Assembly (NCBI GenBank): GCA_021734065.1
Contig: JAIPJQ010000004.1
Coordinates: forward strand, 1 to 55,335
DNA length: 55,335 bases
Direction: 5' to 3'
From: Fidelibacterota bacterium
GTDB lineage: Bacteria; Fidelibacterota; UBA8477
Part shown: positions 9,027 through 28,138 of the stretch, one piece after another
Position numbering within the stretch: position 1 is the stretch's first letter
Layout: each line of letters begins with the position of its first letter
Position numbers and translations under genes: made by a program
The notes under the pieces: generated by a model
The model's database searches: none
What the model was told of the DNA's origin: nothing
The model's input: the letters and a program-made list of their open reading frames with translations, nothing else

Positions 9027-9393
9027 TTCCGTTCCATTTTTAGCCGCGAAATGTATACGGCCATGAATGGGAGCGCAAGCGTTTTAACCAGCGCAAATTC
9101 AGCGAATATAACACTTATACGGTAAACGAATCGTGGTGGAATTTCATTTAAAGCATCAGACTTTTGTATCAAGTTGGTAAGGCCGGATGAAAGACATCGA
9201 AGGGTGAAAAATGTTGCCCGTGGCATATAGTTTGCACCGCTGGGCATCTAATGCGGACGCCGTGTAACATAGATTTTCACCCACGCGTCACATTTTTTCC
9301 AGGAATCGCCGCAAAAGCGATAGTATTTGTTGAAGGGATTGAAATCGAATCTATATTTTGGCCGTCAAATGGATAAATGGAGCAGTGGTAAGT

Positions 9394-10743
9394 ATGGCAC
9401 ATTTTAAAGTTAAGCGAGGGTATAACATTCCCCTGGCTGGCGAACCGGAACGTGTGTTGGTAAAAGGCACGCGTCCAAAACAAGCGGCCGTTCAGCCCGC
9501 AGACATTCGCAATTTTCGTCCGCAGGTTGAAGTGGGACCCGGTGCAGCCGTTAAAGTCGGTTCAGTGCTTTTTGTGGATAAGAAGCATCCGGAGATCCGT
9601 TTTCTTTCACCTGTCGCAGGAACGGTTAACGAGGTGGTGCGCGGTGAAAGGCGCCGCATCATGCGTGTTGTGGTGGATGCAGCTTCGGGTGATGATTATG
9701 AGGAATTTCCCAAATATTCTGACGATGAAATCAAACGGCTGAATTGGGAGAAAGTCCAGTCGGCCCTGCTGCAGGGAGGCTTGTGGCCGACGATTCGGCA
9801 GCGCCCGTATTCCAACATTGCCGCATTGGAAGCCACACCCAAAGCGATTTTCATTTCCGGAATGGAAACCGCTCCACTGGCGGCTGACCCAAATTTTTAC
9901 ATGCAGGGGTTGAAAGCAGACTTTCAATCCGGCATTTACGCCCTGCAGCATCTTACTGAGGGAAAGATTCACCTTTCAGTGGCGCCGGATCAGCAGGATA
10001 GTTTTGACGGGGTGGATGGTGTTGAGCAGCACACCTTTGCCGGACCCCATCCGGCCGGTAATGTGAGTGTACAGGTGTACCACATTGATCGCCTGCGCGC
10101 AGGTGAAATTATCTGGTATATCTCACCTTTTGACGTCGCCCGTATCGGACAATTGCTAAAAAACGGTCACTATCCCAATGAGACGATTGTGGCCGTGGCG
10201 GGCCCGGAATTGGAAAAGCGCCAGTATGTGAAAACTATCTCCGGTGCATCGATGGTCAGCATCCTGCCAGAGAAATTGGACGATGATGAGCAGCGGGTGC
10301 TGTCCGGGACTGTATTGGCCGGAACGAATGCATCGCTGGAAGGCTTTATCGGTTTTTATGACCACACGGTAACCGTTATTCCCGAAGTACAGAAGCGACG
10401 ACTCCTGGGGTGGTTGAGTCCCGGGTTTAACCTGGCCAGCTACGGTGGCACGTTTTTCTCATCCCTGATCAGAAATAAGAAGTTCGTCCAGAATACGGAT
10501 ATCAATGGCGATGAGCGGGCGTTTGTGAGTACGGGGAATTATGAAAAAGTCATGCCCATGGACATTCTGCCGGTGCATCTGGCCAAAGCGGTGCTTGTGG
10601 AAGATATTGAGCTGATGGAAAAGCTCGGTATTTTGGAGGTTGCTCCGGAAGATTTTGCGCTGTGTACATACATCTGTCCTTCAAAGATTGAATTCGGCGA
10701 GATCATCGAACACGGCTTAACACTGATTGAGAAGGAAGGTTAA
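9394..10743 (+). CDS. nqrA: Na(+)-translocating NADH:quinone reductase subunit A
   Basis: FKVKRGYNIPLAGEP, FLSPVAGTV, IRQRPYS, GPHPAGNV, EDFALCTYICPSK; start moved to ATG 9394. Confidence 0.96.
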   Translation: MAHFKVKRGYNIPLAGEPERVLVKGTRPKQAAVQPADIRNFRPQVEVGPGAAVKVGSVLFVDKKHPEIRFLSPVAGTVNEVVRGERRRIMRVVVDAASGDDYEEFPKYSDDEIKRLNWEKVQSALLQGGLWPTIRQRPYSNIAALEATPKAIFISGMETAPLAADPNFYMQGLKADFQSGIYALQHLTEGKIHLSVAPDQQDSFDGVDGVEQHTFAGPHPAGNVSVQVYHIDRLRAGEIIWYISPFDVARIGQLLKNGHYPNETIVAVAGPELEKRQYVKTISGASMVSILPEKLDDDEQRVLSGTVLAGTNASLEGFIGFYDHTVTVIPEVQKRRLLGWLSPGFNLASYGGTFFSSLIRNKKFVQNTDINGDERAFVSTGNYEKVMPMDILPVHLAKAVLVEDIELMEKLGILEVAPEDFALCTYICPSKIEFGEIIEHGLTLIEKEG

Positions 10744-16267: not shown

Positions 16268-16588
16268 TCACTCCTGCCTGCCCTTCAGATGATCCCAATA
16301 GCGCAAATTTTCAATCATCCGATTGCGGGGTTTGCCGTCGTAAGCCTCCTCAGAAATAATGTCCTGACGATTGGGGTAACCAACCTTGGCAAGGGTCGTA
16401 AAGTGATCCTGTTTTTCCACCGCCTCATTAGGACAGAATGCACAACTCACCTTTTCGCCATGAGAATCCAATTGGGCAGTGGCAGAACACTCCATGTGAA
16501 TATTGTTCTTTCCGGTGAGTACATAGGTAATGCCCATTAGCACCAGCGCTGTTCCAAAAATTAGCAGGGTTAACAGTAATTCAGTCAT
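16268..16588 (-). CDS. Small single-TM Cys-containing protein, NqrM (DUF539)-like
   Basis: N-terminal TM helix, then GKNNIHMECSA...GEKVSCAFCP, resembling the NqrM pattern (K..IKGSCGG...CxCP); adjacent to nqr/apbE. Confidence 0.6.
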   Translation of the reverse strand: MTELLLTLLIFGTALVLMGITYVLTGKNNIHMECSATAQLDSHGEKVSCAFCPNEAVEKQDHFTTLAKVGYPNRQDIISEEAYDGKPRNRMIENLRYWDHLKGRQE

Positions 16589-16641: not shown

Positions 16642-16986
16642 TCACCCTTTTACCTGAAAACCCTCTGATTTCAGGTATGCCCGGATGCGATCCCGGTGTT
16701 CACCCTGCAATTCAATGGTTCCGTCTTTCACCGTACCACCGGCGCTCACCAGATTCTTCAGCGTGCGACTCAACGCTTTCATGTCCTGTACACCCGAGAG
16801 GTCGTACAAAACTGTGGTGGGCTTTCCTTTGCGCTTCTCCATCCGTAGTTTGGCAATTTTCACAGTACCCCCTCCGTCCAATTCATCATCATCGCACAAA
16901 CATTGACCGGGAAGTTGACCACATCTTGGACAGGGCTCCACCAGCGCCCAACCGCTTCCGCTTGTTTTCTTTCTGGATTTTGCCAT
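16642..16986 (-). CDS. yciH: SUI1/YciH family translation initiation factor homolog
   Basis: RMEKRKGKPTTVL, LKNLVSAGGTVKDGTIELQGEHRD; N-terminal CPRC..CLC. Confidence 0.88.
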   Translation of the reverse strand: MAKSRKKTSGSGWALVEPCPRCGQLPGQCLCDDDELDGGGTVKIAKLRMEKRKGKPTTVLYDLSGVQDMKALSRTLKNLVSAGGTVKDGTIELQGEHRDRIRAYLKSEGFQVKG

Positions 16987-17093: not shown

Positions 17094-18431
17094 CTATTTC
17101 ATCAAACCGGTTTTGAAAGCATTGGTGATAATGGTTTCAAGTGTGGGTTCACCGATTTCCTGCAGTTTGTACAATACCCGGGTGGAGGGTTTGTCGATTT
17201 TGATCACCCGGCGCAGATCGATGGGTGTTCCAATGATCACGGCATCACAATCCGCGTTGGCGATGGTGGTTTCCAGATCTTTCATCTGTTCCTCGCCGTA
17301 ACCCATTGCCGGCAGGAGATCGCCGATATCTTCGTACTTTTCAAAGGTTTCGGTGATTTTTCCGACAGTAAACGGTCTCGGATCCACCAACTCAGCAGCG
17401 CCAAATTTGTCGGCGGCAACTACACCGGCACCATAGGTCATTTCACCATGTGTGAGAGTGGGTCCATCCTCCACGACCAATACGCGCGCATCCCGGATCA
17501 CATCCGGATTATCCACATAAATGGGCGATGCCGCGTCGATCACGATCGCTTCCGGATTGACCCAGTCGATACTGTCACGTACTTCCTGAATGCCTTCCAT
17601 ATTGGCTGTATCCATTTTATTGATCACCACCACGTCAGCCATCATCAGGTTCGTCTCACCGGGATAATAGGAAATCTCATGACCCGGGCGGTGGGGATCC
17701 ACCACGGTGATCATCATGTCTGGAATGTAAAATGGCATATCGTTATTACCACCATCCCAGACGATCACGTCGGCTTCTTTTTCGGCTTCCTGCAGAATGG
17801 CCTCGTAATCCACGCCCGCGTAAACCACCGTGCCATTCATGATGTGGGGTTCGTATTCTTCCATCTCTTCAATGGTGCAATCGTGTTTTTTCAAATCCTC
17901 CAGCGTGGCAAACCGCTGGACTTTCTGCTTCACCAGATCACCGTAAGGCATGGGATGACGGATGGCCACCACCTTCTTGCCCTGGGCTTTGAGAATGTCG
18001 CACATGCGCCGGGTGGTCTGGGATTTACCACAGCCGGTACGCACCGCACAAACCGCAATGACTGGTTTTTCCGACTTCAACATGGTGCGCTTGGCACCCA
18101 TCATTCTGAAATCCGCGCCTGCGGCATTCACCAAAGCGGCTTTGTGCATGAGGGTATCATAGGAAACATCGCTGTACGCGAAAACCACCTCATCAATATC
18201 CATCTCGTCAATTAATTCCTCCAGATCATCCTCTGAATAGATTGGAATCCCTTCCGGATATAACACGCCTGCCAGTTCAGCAGGATATTTTCGGCCGTCA
18301 ATATCGGGGATCTGAGTCGCCGTAAAAGCCACCACCTCATACGCGGGATTATCACGATAGTACACATTGAAATTGTGAAAATCCCGACCCGCTGCCCCCA
18401 TAATGATTACTCGAATGCGTTCATCACTCAT
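17094..18431 (-). CDS. COG2403-type P-loop protein (usually annotated cyclic 2,3-diphosphoglycerate synthetase/GTPase); probable arginine synthetase ArcE
   Basis: IMGAAGRDFHNFN, VVAFTATQIP, AVRTGCGKSQT, IRHPMPYGDL, CTIEEMEEYEPH, WDGGNND, VEDGPTLTHG, LPAMGYG. Family is confident; function is inferred. Confidence 0.8.
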   Translation of the reverse strand: MSDERIRVIIMGAAGRDFHNFNVYYRDNPAYEVVAFTATQIPDIDGRKYPAELAGVLYPEGIPIYSEDDLEELIDEMDIDEVVFAYSDVSYDTLMHKAALVNAAGADFRMMGAKRTMLKSEKPVIAVCAVRTGCGKSQTTRRMCDILKAQGKKVVAIRHPMPYGDLVKQKVQRFATLEDLKKHDCTIEEMEEYEPHIMNGTVVYAGVDYEAILQEAEKEADVIVWDGGNNDMPFYIPDMMITVVDPHRPGHEISYYPGETNLMMADVVVINKMDTANMEGIQEVRDSIDWVNPEAIVIDAASPIYVDNPDVIRDARVLVVEDGPTLTHGEMTYGAGVVAADKFGAAELVDPRPFTVGKITETFEKYEDIGDLLPAMGYGEEQMKDLETTIANADCDAVIIGTPIDLRRVIKIDKPSTRVLYKLQEIGEPTLETIITNAFKTGLMK

Positions 18432-18451
18432 AATATGCTCCTTTAATAACT

Positions 18452-18464: not shown

Positions 18465-18605
18465 TAACGCCATTCCCGGAAATTGCCGTTCGGTCATGGA
18501 CATATTTACACTGATTTGATTGCTCGGCACCCTCACCCCGGTTGCAAATTACAGGCCAGCAAGGGAGTTTAGCTGTAATGTCCCAGACCGCACCGCTGCT
18601 GAAAT

Positions 18606-19646
18606 TTACCCGTAACTGACATTCGTTATAAGCGCATCATCCATGCCCGGCCTGACCTGACCTTCATGGGGATGATTTTGGAAGTAACTGATCATATCCT
18701 GAATGCTGGCATACATTTCCGACGCCGACTGCATGCGTACCAATTGCTGACGATAGTTAGAGGCGTTGTGAAAACCCTTGAGATACCATCCCAAGTGTTT
18801 TTTCATGAAATTGGCACCGGCACGTTCGCCCCGGTCACGCATTTCCAGTTCCAAATGGTATTTACACAATTCCAGCCGCTCCAGAACCGTCGGTGGGAGT
18901 GGTGTTTCACCTGTTGACAGGTAGTGGTTAATCTCCTGAAATATCCAGGGGTTACCCAGGCTGCGACGCCCCACCATCACTGCATCACAACCAGTTTCGT
19001 CCAGCATTCTCCGAGCGTCCTGGGCAGATGTGATATCACCATTCCCAATCACCGGAATTTTCACGCGAGATTTCACCTCTCCGATCAACTCCCATTTGGC
19101 CTTTCCGGTGTAGAGCATTTTGGTGGTGCGGGGATGAATGGTCAACGCGCTGATTCCAGCCGTCTCCAGCAATTGTGCAGATTCTGGAGCATTAATGCAG
19201 GAAAAGTCCCAGCCCGCACGGATTTTAGCGGTAACCGGTATATCCACCGCCGCCACCACCGCCCGGGTGATTTCATCCATCCGCGGCAGGTCTTTCAGAA
19301 TGGCTGAACCCGCGCCTTTTTTGGTGATTTTCGGCACCGGACAGCCGAAGTTCAGATCAATTAAGTCCGGCTTAACGGTATCTTGAATATAGCGGGCACT
19401 TTCGGCCAGAACCTCTGCCGACTCACCGAAAATTTGCACACCGATGGGGCGCTCTTCTTCCTCGTAGCGCATCATCTGCAAAGTTTTGTCATTTCCACGG
19501 ATAATGCCATTGGCACTGACGAATTCGGTATACACCATTCCGGCACCCATGCGACGACAGATCATCCGAAAAGCATGGTCGGTGACACCTGCCATGGGAG
19601 CCAGGACGACTTTACTGCTAACGGTTATGTTTTTAATTCGAAGCAT
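18606..19646 (-). CDS. dusB: tRNA-dihydrouridine synthase DusB
   Basis: LAPMAGVTD, YTEFVSA, IDLNFGCP, GAGSAIL, IHPRT, IPVIGNGDI, MVGRRSLGNPWIF. Confidence 0.93.
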   Translation of the reverse strand: MLRIKNITVSSKVVLAPMAGVTDHAFRMICRRMGAGMVYTEFVSANGIIRGNDKTLQMMRYEEEERPIGVQIFGESAEVLAESARYIQDTVKPDLIDLNFGCPVPKITKKGAGSAILKDLPRMDEITRAVVAAVDIPVTAKIRAGWDFSCINAPESAQLLETAGISALTIHPRTTKMLYTGKAKWELIGEVKSRVKIPVIGNGDITSAQDARRMLDETGCDAVMVGRRSLGNPWIFQEINHYLSTGETPLPPTVLERLELCKYHLELEMRDRGERAGANFMKKHLGWYLKGFHNASNYRQQLVRMQSASEMYASIQDMISYFQNHPHEGQVRPGMDDALITNVSYG

Positions 19647-25045: not shown

Positions 25046-25987
25046 TTGAAAACAGCGGTTGTTGCGCTGGGCGGAAATGCCATCTCACCGGTGGGTGAAG
25101 TCGATACCATTGCCAAACAATTTACACAAACCCGGAAAAGCCTGAATGCCATTATACAGCTGTTAAAAAATGACATTCTGCCAGTAATTTCTCACGGAAA
25201 CGGCCCCCAGGTTGGCAGCGCCTTGTTACGCACCGAAATGACCGCTGACAAGCTCATGTATCTCCCGCTGGGGATTTGTGTCGCAGACACCGAAGGCGGC
25301 ATGGGATATATGATTGAACAGAGTCTCCAGAACCGTCTCAGGGATGAAAATATCAACCGCACGGTAGTGACACTTGTAACCCAGGTTGTGGTGTCCAAAG
25401 ATGATCCTTCCATCACCGACCCCAGCAAATTTATCGGACCGGCACTTCCTGAAGAGGACGCGCGGAGACGAGCCAAACGATTTGGCTGGCAGATCAAACC
25501 TTACGGGGAAGACAAATGGCGCCGCGTTGTGCCATCCCCGGAACCCATTGAGATCGTCAACCGGGAAGCGATTCGACATCTGGTGGAGAATGGTCATATT
25601 GTCATTGCAGCCGGTGGTGGTGGTGTGCCGGTATATTATGATGAGCATGGGAATCTGGAGGGTATGGACGCCGTTATTGATAAAGACCGGGCTTCTGCAC
25701 TCATGGCGAATCAAATCGGTGCCGAGACACTATTCATCCTCACGGCTGTTCCAAAAGTAGCGCTGAATTTTGGTAAACCAGATCAGGTGTGGCTGGACCA
25801 CATGACGATTAGGGAAGCGGAACGATATCTGGCCGAAGGACATTTCCCCGGTGGCAGCATGGGACCGAAAATTGAAGCGGCTGTGAAATTTCTGAAAAAT
25901 GGCGGTCAACGCGTCGTCATCACGGATATTGAAACACTGAGTGAGCAGTTTAATGACACACTGGGAACCGTCATCACCCGGGACTGA
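25046..25987 (+). CDS. arcC: Carbamate kinase
   Basis: VVALGGNAI, SHGNGPQVG, ADTEGGMGY, PSKFIGP, WRRVVPSPEP, GGGGVPV, AVIDKD, GSMGPKI; TTG start with GGAG RBS. Confidence 0.96.
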   Translation: MKTAVVALGGNAISPVGEVDTIAKQFTQTRKSLNAIIQLLKNDILPVISHGNGPQVGSALLRTEMTADKLMYLPLGICVADTEGGMGYMIEQSLQNRLRDENINRTVVTLVTQVVVSKDDPSITDPSKFIGPALPEEDARRRAKRFGWQIKPYGEDKWRRVVPSPEPIEIVNREAIRHLVENGHIVIAAGGGGVPVYYDEHGNLEGMDAVIDKDRASALMANQIGAETLFILTAVPKVALNFGKPDQVWLDHMTIREAERYLAEGHFPGGSMGPKIEAAVKFLKNGGQRVVITDIETLSEQFNDTLGTVITRD

Positions 25988-26092
25988 CAGGACGATTACA
26001 ATTACAATGCACTTCAACCTCTTCGCTCCTCACACCAATCATAAACTTCCTTTTCAACACAGTTATTTTGATAATCATAACAAGGGGACATC

Positions 26093-27256
26093 ATGAAAAT
26101 TCATGAATACCAGGCCAAGGAGATTTTCCGGAAATACAATGTTCCGGTACCCGATGGCAATGTTGCATTTAATCCTGACGAAGCAGTAGAAGTCGCTGAA
26201 TCCCTGGACTCACAGGTCTATGTGGTAAAAGCGCAAATTCATGCCGGTGGCCGTGGTAAGGGCGGCGGTGTGAAATTGGCCCAATCAACGGATGAAGTTC
26301 GTTCGCTGGCTGAAGCCATGCTGGGCATGACGCTGGTGACACACCAAACCGGACCCGGGGGAAAAGAGGTTCAGCGTATCCTTGTGGAGCAGGGCGTAGA
26401 CATCAAACGCGAATTGTATGTGGGAATTGTACTGGACCGCCAAGCCGGCAAAGATGTGTTTATGGTTTCCACAGAAGGTGGTGTGGAGATCGAGAAGGTC
26501 GCCGCGGAAACGCCGGAGAAAATTATCAAGGAATGGGTAGAGCCCGGTTTGGGCTTACAGACATTTCAGGCACGGAAACTGGCCTATGCTTTGGGGCTTG
26601 AAGGAAATCAGGTACGCAGCGCCGTAAAATTTTTCCACGCGCTGTATAAGGCCTATTCTGCTTCCGATGCATCATTGGCCGAGATTAACCCGCTGGTGGT
26701 CACCGGAAGTGGCGACGTCATGGCGCTGGATGCCAAGATGAATTTTGACGACAATGCCCTGTTCCGTCACAAAGACATCATGGAATTACGGGATCTGTCC
26801 GAAGAGGAGCCCTCGGAAATCGAGGCCACCAAGCACAACCTGAATTACATCAAACTAGATGGCAATGTGGGTTGCATGGTGAATGGCGCCGGACTGGCCA
26901 TGGCCACCATGGACATTATTAAACTTCATGGCGGCGAACCGGCAAATTTCCTGGATGTGGGCGGTGTGGCGAACGCCGAAACGGTGGCAAACGGGTTTCG
27001 TATCATTATGAACGACCCCAATGTGAAGGCTGTTTTAATCAACATTTTTGGTGGAATTGTGCGGTGTGACCGTGTGGCTCAGGGCGTGATAGACGCATTA
27101 AATCTGGTGAAGGTGAATGTCCCGCTGGTGGTGCGTCTGGAAGGCACGAATGCCAAAGAAGCGGCTGAACTACTGGAAAATTCCAATCTGGATTTTCTGG
27201 TGGCCAACAGCCTGGAAGACGCTGCAAAAAAAGTAACCGCTGCCATCAAGGAGTAA
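26093..27256 (+). CDS. sucC: Succinyl-CoA synthetase beta subunit
   Basis: [59 protein letters not shown]. Confidence 0.98.
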
Positions 27257-27262
27257 GTGACC

Positions 27263-28138
27263 ATGAGTATTTTAGTGAATGATAATACACGTCTGATCGT
27301 TCAGGGCATCACCGGTAGTGAAGGTTCTTTTCATACGCAACAAATGATTGAATATGGCACCCAAGTTGTGGCTGGTGTGACTCCCGGTAAAGGCGGGCAA
27401 AAGACCGAGCACAGTGTCCCTATTTTTAATACCGTTTCGGAAGCCCAAAATGCTACTGATGCCAATACATCCGTTATTTTTGTACCTCCACCCTTTGCCG
27501 CTGATGCTATTATGGAAGCTACGGATGCAGATCTGGATCTGGTCATTTGTATTACGGAAGGCATCCCCGTGCAGGACATGGTGAAGGTAAAAACTTATAT
27601 GGCAGGGCGGAAAACGCGCCTAGTGGGTCCCAACTGCCCCGGCGTTATTTCCCCGGGCAAAGCCAAAATCGGTATAATGCCTGGCTTTATCCATAAAAAA
27701 GGCAGCGTGGGTGTCATCAGTCGCTCCGGTACCCTCACCTACGAAGCAGTTCATCAGCTCACCACCCGGAATATCGGGCAATCCACTTGTATCGGGATTG
27801 GTGGTGATCCGATCAATGGAACGAACTTTATCGACTTGTTGAAAATGTTTCAGGATGACCCTAACACAGACGCGGTAGTACTCATCGGTGAGATCGGTGG
27901 GACCGCCGAAGAAGAAGCCGCTGCGTGGGCGCAGGCAAATTTCAGCAAACCAATTGTGGCATTCATTGCCGGCCAGACTGCACCTCCGGGACGCCGAATG
28001 GGTCATGCCGGAGCCATTATTTCCGGTGGTAAAGGCACTGCCGAAGATAAAGTAAAAGCCCTGCGGGATGCGGGCATCATCGTGTCCGATAGTCCGGCCA
28101 CAATTGGTGAGCTGATTGAAAAAGCGCTGCAGAACTGA
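27263..28138 (+). CDS. sucD: Succinyl-CoA synthetase alpha subunit
   Basis: [43 protein letters not shown] (phospho-His). Confidence 0.98.

Follow-up and report, generated by a model that had tools for sequence, protein, structure and literature searches.

A bacterial orthologue of arginine synthetase (ArcE, an ATP-forming arginine deiminase) is encoded on contig JAIPJQ010000004.1 of a Fidelibacterota bacterium, of which positions 1 to 55,335 were analysed (this whole stretch of 55,335 nucleotides is called the window below). The predicted P-loop enzyme most likely acts in the catabolic direction, as the first step of an arginine synthetase pathway that would yield two ATP per arginine. Arginine synthetase was described as TK2200 of Thermococcus kodakarensis (Michimori, Yokooji & Atomi, PNAS 2024, PMC11032458) and catalyses the reversible reaction Arg + ADP + Pi <-> Cit + NH3 + ATP. 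The protein, TK2200p, is probably a tetramer with a predicted LpxK-like fold (4EHY) and is distant kin of the cyclic 2,3-diphosphoglycerate (cDPG) synthetases; its homologs are annotated as putative GTPases, and arcE homologs were reported to be widespread in bacteria, the phylum of the window not being named (PMC11032458). An earlier note on this DNA had held that standard annotation would miss such a pathway in this lineage. The mislabelling is indeed real, but it does not hide anything new in principle, as enzyme, pathway and wide bacterial occurrence have been known since 2024 (PMC11032458). New here are the host phylum, the exchange of arcE and arcA upstream of the carbamate kinase gene arcC, and a conserved sigma-54-type promoter. 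A literature search found no paper on carbamate kinase or arginine catabolism in Marinimicrobia or Fidelibacter.

Orthology to archaeal ArcE and separation from cDPG synthetases

The arcE reading frame of the window (Table 1) starts with ATG, and AAAGGAG or AGGAG is found at the same spot before arcE in the aligned upstream regions of relatives. As the earlier note had read from the sequence, the protein of 445 aa is full-length and carries all five motifs GAAGRDFHNFN, RTGCGKS, RHPMPYG, EEYEPH and EDGPTLTHG intact; most of the motif residues are invariant across 30 aligned family members from bacteria and archaea. Pfam returned a marginal cobW/HypB/UreG match alone (24 bits), and no NCBIfam model matched. 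The close homologs come from Marinimicrobia metagenome-assembled genomes (MAGs), and in public sources close relatives are named 'GTPase' or 'cyclic 2,3-diphosphoglycerate synthase'.

The window protein was compared with Thermococcales orthologues and not with the TK2200 sequence itself, the link to TK2200 being made through the statement that arcE is conserved throughout the Thermococcales (PMC13260591). BLASTP against the representative of a Thermococcales 90%-identity cluster (P0122) led to 292 identical residues out of 438 (67%) with 0 gaps and 625 bits. The cluster has 201 members from Thermococcus and Palaeococcus, and the Pyrococcus furiosus protein is 91% identical, a spread that agrees with the reported conservation of arcE. 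Four Thermococcus/Thermococcaceae genomes, reached via a DNA polymerase probe and then searched with the window protein, each gave one strong homolog (669-686 bits, 67-68% identity over 433-437 residues). Thermococcus/Thermococcaceae MAGs additionally carry a second, separate paralog, a true cDPG synthetase by its 514 bits to PDB 9sxb (e.g. L091:1060-2364, L092 and L093), which shares with the window protein 26% identity over 268 aa (58 bits, BLASTP). One database name thus covers two different enzymes within a single Thermococcus genome.

In a maximum-likelihood tree with the cDPG synthetases as outgroup, the window protein formed one clade with proteins of other Marinimicrobia, Acidobacteria, Asgard archaea and Thermococcales, split from the cDPG synthetase clade at 100/100 support and by a branch length of 4.15. 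An AlphaFold (AF2) model of the window protein (pLDDT 87.8, pTM 0.87) was submitted to Foldseek, and the best match was the cDPG synthetase 8oru (E = 1.4e-16, TM 0.49; 14% identity in the structural alignment), followed by LpxK (4lkv, 4ehy and 4ehx, E about 1e-7), which matches what was reported for TK2200p (PMC11032458). Judged from the Thermococcales orthology, the 100/100 split of the clades and the cDPG synthetase/LpxK-like fold, the database name (cDPG synthase or GTPase) is wrong and the assignment to the ArcE family is right. The earlier note had placed the protein in a cDPG synthetase-like family together with ArcE and had named a phylogeny of the two groups as a check, and both stand up.

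That the window protein is a cDPG synthetase, or else an ordinary GTPase with no connection to arginine, is already contradicted by sequence and phylogeny and is very improbable. The source names point that way, as do the weak cobW match, the cDPG synthetase as best solved fold and the housekeeping genes that are its immediate neighbours. Yet a sequence search of the PDB with the window protein gave only E = 1.4e-5 over 82 residues (216-297), the identity to the genuine enzyme is low, the two clades are set apart by a fully supported branch, and both types occur in Thermococcus as distinct genes. Moreover, TK2200p prefers ADP (PMC11032458), GDP giving 8.4% of the activity, and across the phylum the gene is linked to arcC as described below.

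Gene inventory and proposed pathway

The window is part of a 2.5-Mb Marinimicrobia-like MAG of 170 contigs, which is 82% complete, so that all gene absences given for it are provisional. The carbamate kinase gene that had been noticed on the window was confirmed with a curated model (Table 1); it lies on the opposite strand, with its start about 6.6 kb from arcE. Genes for ornithine carbamoyltransferase (OTC), an ornithine aminotransferase (OAT)-like enzyme and L-glutamate gamma-semialdehyde (P5C) dehydrogenase were found on other contigs, and carB of carbamoyl phosphate synthetase (CPS) is present as well. The probes for OAT, ProA, ProB, ArgR and AhrC were approximate sequences; a curated model was used to check what the OAT probe had matched, and the P5C dehydrogenase was reached indirectly, as an open reading frame neighbouring a ProA probe match, and then checked in the same way. 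Arginine deiminase (ADI), reported earlier as missing from the window, was found neither there nor in the whole 82%-complete genome, and the same genome gave no argG, argH or argC (argH was searched in this genome alone) and no match for ProB or ProA with the approximate probes. ArcE and carbamate kinase are also present in the three remaining genomes of the family (88-92% complete), and argG, argC and ADI were not found there.

A second carbamoyltransferase gene (C95:23734-24717) scored below all curated cut-offs (OTC 260, N-acetylornithine carbamoyltransferase 222, putrescine carbamoyltransferase 221 and YgeW 183 bits). It is part of a cluster at C95:17989-27559 with YgeY (666 bits), an SsnA-like aminohydrolase, two PLP (pyridoxal phosphate) enzymes and, by appearance only, a xanthine-dehydrogenase-like subunit. 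This carbamoyltransferase may supply the same carbamate kinase with carbamoyl phosphate from a non-arginine substrate.

By analogy with T. kodakarensis, from which activity, direction and yield are taken over, ArcE would turn arginine (presumably from peptides) into citrulline and thereby form one ATP. Citrulline would then be phosphorolysed by the unlinked OTC to ornithine and carbamoyl phosphate, from which carbamate kinase, encoded 6.6 kb away, would form the second ATP, and ornithine would be degraded to glutamate, probably by the OAT-like enzyme and subsequently P5C dehydrogenase. The organism seems to lack the capacity for arginine synthesis, so that peptide arginine would serve as a source of energy and nitrogen. 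The proposal of the earlier note, two ATP per arginine by substrate-level phosphorylation, is supported by the orthology of ArcE, the presence of OTC and carbamate kinase, and the fact that ADI, argG and argH were not found in the 82%-complete genome, the yield itself being the one expected from the archaeal pathway.

Exchange of arcE and arcA upstream of arcC in the phylum

Among 201 species genomes of the phylum, ArcE was found in 151, carbamate kinase in 181 and OTC in 189, and argG (90 genomes) was much more frequent than argC (34 genomes); truncated arginine pathways are therefore common in this phylum. In at least 69 of the 149 listed ArcE-positive genomes, arcE is located directly 5' of arcC on the same strand, with gaps of 11-176 nt (median 44). 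A full-length ADI-family (arcA-like) gene was detected in 10 genomes (Pfam ADI 220-224 bits for the two that were scanned). Nine of these 10 are without ArcE, and 150 of the 151 ArcE-positive genomes are without an ADI-family gene (Fisher p = 1.6e-5). Since the ADI-family gene is again directly 5' of arcC in eight of the 10 genomes, this exchange amounts to non-orthologous displacement in one and the same gene position, and it is the strongest contextual evidence that ArcE performs the arginine-to-citrulline step in this phylum.

The occurrence of ArcE is independent of that of argG (73 ArcE genomes with argG and 78 without, p = 0.10), and 27 genomes possess ArcE, argG and argC together, the independence arguing against ArcE as a general substitute for ArgG/ArgH. 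OTC and carbamate kinase are retained in many genomes that are unable to use them for arginine synthesis, which, together with the exchange upstream of arcC, suggests that peptide arginine is a general energy source in the phylum. Both ArcE and an ADI-family gene are missing from 41 of the 201 genomes, and several of those listed, including the approximately 1-Mb genomes of family f11, keep OTC and carbamate kinase.

The order to which the window belongs is represented by 30 genomes, all of which have ArcE and none of which has argC or ADI, and most are without argG. In 13 of these genomes arcE and arcC are found on one contig, 5.9-16 kb apart and on opposite strands. OTC is unlinked to both in the genome of the window.

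Direction of the reaction

From the arcE-arcC coupling, the exchange with ADI and the independence from argG, a catabolic role of ArcE is favoured. The opposite direction was considered as well, in which ArcE would form arginine from citrulline, NH3 and ATP as the sole last step in place of ArgG/ArgH, with carbamoyl phosphate from CPS and with ornithine or citrulline either imported or made by an aminotransferase. Such a role was proposed by the ArcE authors for organisms without ArgG/ArgH (PMC11032458), and the reversibility of the reaction would permit it here: the 82%-complete genome has carB, OTC and an OAT-like gene and gave no argG or argH, and argG was found in none of the four genomes of the family. 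Against this, argC is missing from all 30 genomes of the order and no ProB/ProA was found by the probes, so that no route to ornithine is visible. In the phylum, ArcE does not offset the loss of argG, and its gene and the catabolic arcC are direct neighbours in at least 69 genomes; in eight genomes an ADI-family gene, whose product works in the direction of breakdown only, takes its place. In addition, the Ks of ArcE for ammonia is in the millimolar range according to the ArcE literature. Replacement of ArgG/ArgH was thus kept as a minor rival and is regarded as unlikely.

Some points weigh against the catabolic reading preferred here. The tie to TK2200 runs via the Thermococcales orthologues, and no enzyme assay of any bacterial ArcE was found in the literature searched. 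The window arcE forms no operon with arcC or argF, its fixed neighbours being the housekeeping genes dusB and yciH. The presence of carB and the reversible reaction leave room for arginine synthesis from imported citrulline or ornithine, and the second carbamoyltransferase could also feed carbamate kinase. Finally, at 82% completeness some of the missing genes may lie in the part of the genome that was not assembled.

A sigma-54-type promoter upstream of arcE

An ARG-box-like site upstream of arcE had been suggested in the earlier note and had to be given up, together with control by ArgR. With the E. coli ARG-box consensus and up to three mismatches, no match was found between arcE and dusB, and the window as a whole gave 6 matches compared with 12.2 expected by chance. 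The candidate stretch TATGAACTTTATGCAAGT is common to the window and the same-genus relative only, the other ten relatives showing no conservation of it, and phmmer with the approximate ArgR and AhrC probe sequences found no repressor in the 82%-complete genome.

Alignment of the arcE upstream spacers from 12 genomes of the order instead revealed two invariant blocks alone, TGGC and TTTGC, in spacers that have otherwise diverged. As GG and GC within these blocks are 10 nt apart, they correspond to the -24/-12 signature of a sigma-54 promoter, and the window has the predicted site TGGCCTGTAATTTGCA (Table 1). The pattern TGGC-N7-TTGC[AT] occurs exactly once per spacer in all 12 genomes, 45-123 nt before the arcE ATG. 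Sites as close to the sigma-54 consensus as TGGCCTGTAATTTGCA number 93 on both strands of the 2.5-Mb genome. The genome encodes RpoN and has about 11 open reading frames with a GAFTGA motif, none of which is located in the window. A sigma-54 promoter implies control of arcE by an enhancer-binding activator; an upstream activator site conserved between families f1 and f2 was not seen in the aligned arcE spacers. No sigma-54 site was found before arcC, argF or the OAT gene in the genome of the window.

The promoter as a trait of the whole phylum was rejected, since the upstream regions of arcE and of the arcA-like gene in 40 genomes from other families showed no such site, two genomes excepted. 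These two, belonging to one genus of family f8 (L108 and L111, in G012 and G018), have a weaker sigma-54-like sequence TGGTTCGGATTCTGCT (9/12 consensus positions) about 100 nt before an arcE-arcC pair. With its presence in 12 genomes of the order, and apart from TGGTTCGGATTCTGCT its absence from the other families examined, the predicted promoter appears to be an acquisition of the window's order, made when arcE left arcC. The catabolic reading would accordingly include, for this order, an arcE that is split from arcC and has a sigma-54-dependent promoter to itself.

At 9221-9236 (+) the window contains another exact site of the sigma-54 type, TGGCATATAGTTTGCA, 122 nt before nqrA (9358-10743), with which the Na+-NQR operon nqrA-F/apbE begins.

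Neighbourhood of arcE and alternative roles in the order

The gene order dusB-arcE-yciH-orf106 recurs in all 11 relatives compared from the window's order (Table 1), dusB and yciH being probably outside the pathway. Such a fixed position with tRNA and translation genes, away from arcC and behind an own sigma-54 promoter, could also fit a member of the ArcE family whose substrate is a guanidino compound other than arginine, or one that serves in regulation or energy sensing in connection with the dusB-yciH neighbourhood and not in bulk arginine catabolism, the more so as no assay of a bacterial member was found in the literature searched. This appears quite unlikely, though, in view of the gapless 67% identity to arginine-specific archaeal orthologues and the retention of the residues that are invariant in the family. 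The window protein is also 77-81% identical to the copies of the sister family (f2) and 63-75% identical to those from the rest of the phylum, where arcE-arcC pairs encode many of them.

More speculatively, the uncoupling from arcC, the fixed dusB-arcE-yciH order, the sigma-54 promoter, the lack of argC in 30 of 30 genomes and the mostly missing argG could be combined in the idea that ArcE is a reversible, activator-controlled valve, which would make arginine from scavenged citrulline or ornithine and ammonia when arginine is scarce and burn it for ATP when ADP is high. We consider this doubtful; if true, these organisms would form arginine by ArcE alone, which would be the first natural case in bacteria of an arginine supply that depends on ArcE.

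Table 1. Positions of the features on the window and of pathway genes on other contigs of the same genome.
Feature	Position	Strand	Basis and remarks
arcE, arginine synthetase (ATP-forming arginine deiminase) orthologue, 445 aa	17094..18431	-	Open reading frame with ATG start; homology and tree
Shine-Dalgarno sequence AAAGGAG	18438..18444	-	6 nt 5' of arcE ATG; read from sequence
Predicted sigma-54-type -24/-12 promoter TGGCCTGTAATTTGCA (GG-N10-GC)	18543..18558	-	111 nt before arcE ATG; 10/12 consensus positions
dusB, tRNA dihydrouridine synthase	18606..19646	-	Conserved upstream neighbour; Pfam Dus 308 bits
yciH/SUI1-family gene	16642..16986	-	Conserved downstream neighbour; Pfam SUI1 46 bits
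orf106, 106 aa, downstream of yciH	16268..16588	-	One N-terminal hydrophobic helix and cysteine-rich stretch CSATAQLDSHGEKVSCAFCPN
arcC, carbamate kinase	25046..25987	+	NF009007 327.7 bits (cut-off 266); TIGR00746 344.4 bits (below cut-off 358.25)
OTC (argF)	C140:29619-30554		398.7 bits (cut-off 280.85); NF001986 441.6 bits
OAT-like gene	C26:66637-67989		TIGR01885 366 bits (just below cut-off 378)
P5C dehydrogenase	C37:494-2140		782 bits (cut-off 613)
rpoN	G000 C66:3122-4528		TIGR02395 421.6 bits (cut-off 277)

No Pfam or NCBIfam family matched orf106. Next after arcC, in the same orientation, come sucC and sucD for succinyl-CoA synthetase (25046-28138, +), which places two substrate-level ATP-forming enzymes next to each other, and upstream of arcC there are an ABC-2 exporter pair and a GMC oxidoreductase.

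Selenocysteine in ArcE was considered and rejected, as the '1 TGA' flags in four relatives turned out to be ordinary C-terminal stops and one frameshifted copy. Two short contigs assigned to a 'Clostridiales/Clostridiaceae bacterium' (L007 and L019; QXXF01000046.1 and QXXE01000237.1) each carry a gene whose product shares 99-100% identity with the KOD DNA polymerase in its intein-free form, and are most likely contamination by PCR-reagent DNA.

Significance and comparison with known systems

With the assignment to ArcE, a systematic mis-annotation as 'cDPG synthase' or 'GTPase' is corrected to arginine synthetase, and a large, ecologically abundant and mostly uncultured bacterial phylum would join the hosts of the two-ATP arginine pathway. 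The survey repeats in bacteria the comparative argument behind the discovery of ArcE in archaea, and the sigma-54 promoter offers a concrete handle on the regulation of arcE.

The proposed pathway shares with the classical arcA-arcB-arcC ADI pathway of Pseudomonas aeruginosa and Lactococcus lactis the sequence from arginine via citrulline to ornithine and carbamoyl phosphate, and from there to ATP. ADI is, however, a hydrolase of unrelated fold in a pathway yielding one ATP per arginine, whereas ArcE is a reversible P-loop enzyme by which the energy of deimination would be conserved as a second ATP. For the regulation, a parallel is found in the roc operons of Bacillus subtilis, in which arginine and ornithine catabolism is under the control of sigma-54 (SigL) and RocR, an enhancer-binding activator, through a -24/-12 promoter. 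Here, too, a presumed arginine catabolic gene is preceded by a -24/-12 promoter, and the downstream steps would likewise proceed via ornithine aminotransferase and P5C dehydrogenase. The first enzyme in B. subtilis is the arginase RocF and not ArcE, no RocR-like activator was found adjoining arcE, and the OAT, OTC and carbamate kinase genes of the window's genome are without such promoters. The cDPG synthetases (Methanothermus fervidus, PDB 8ORK/8ORU; 9SXB) have the overall fold in common with the window protein as distant homologs and are the origin of its database name; they form a separate clade, with 14% structural and 26% BLASTP identity, and are encoded by a distinct gene beside arcE in Thermococcus.

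The closest system is ArcE-ArcB-ArcC of T. kodakarensis (PMC11032458; Michimori et al. 2026, PMC13260591). Common to both are the protein family with 67% identity to Thermococcales orthologues, the length, the P-loop LpxK/cDPG synthetase-like fold, the partners OTC and carbamate kinase, a setting without ADI and without ArgG/ArgH, and the mislabelling as GTPase or cDPG synthase in databases. The host of the window differs in being a mesophilic bacterium (a Marinimicrobia/Fidelibacterota-like MAG), for which the activity is predicted from sequence, and in having CPS, so that the pathway would not be needed as a source of carbamoyl phosphate. Unlike in T. kodakarensis, its arcE is detached from arcC and is preceded by a predicted sigma-54-type promoter.

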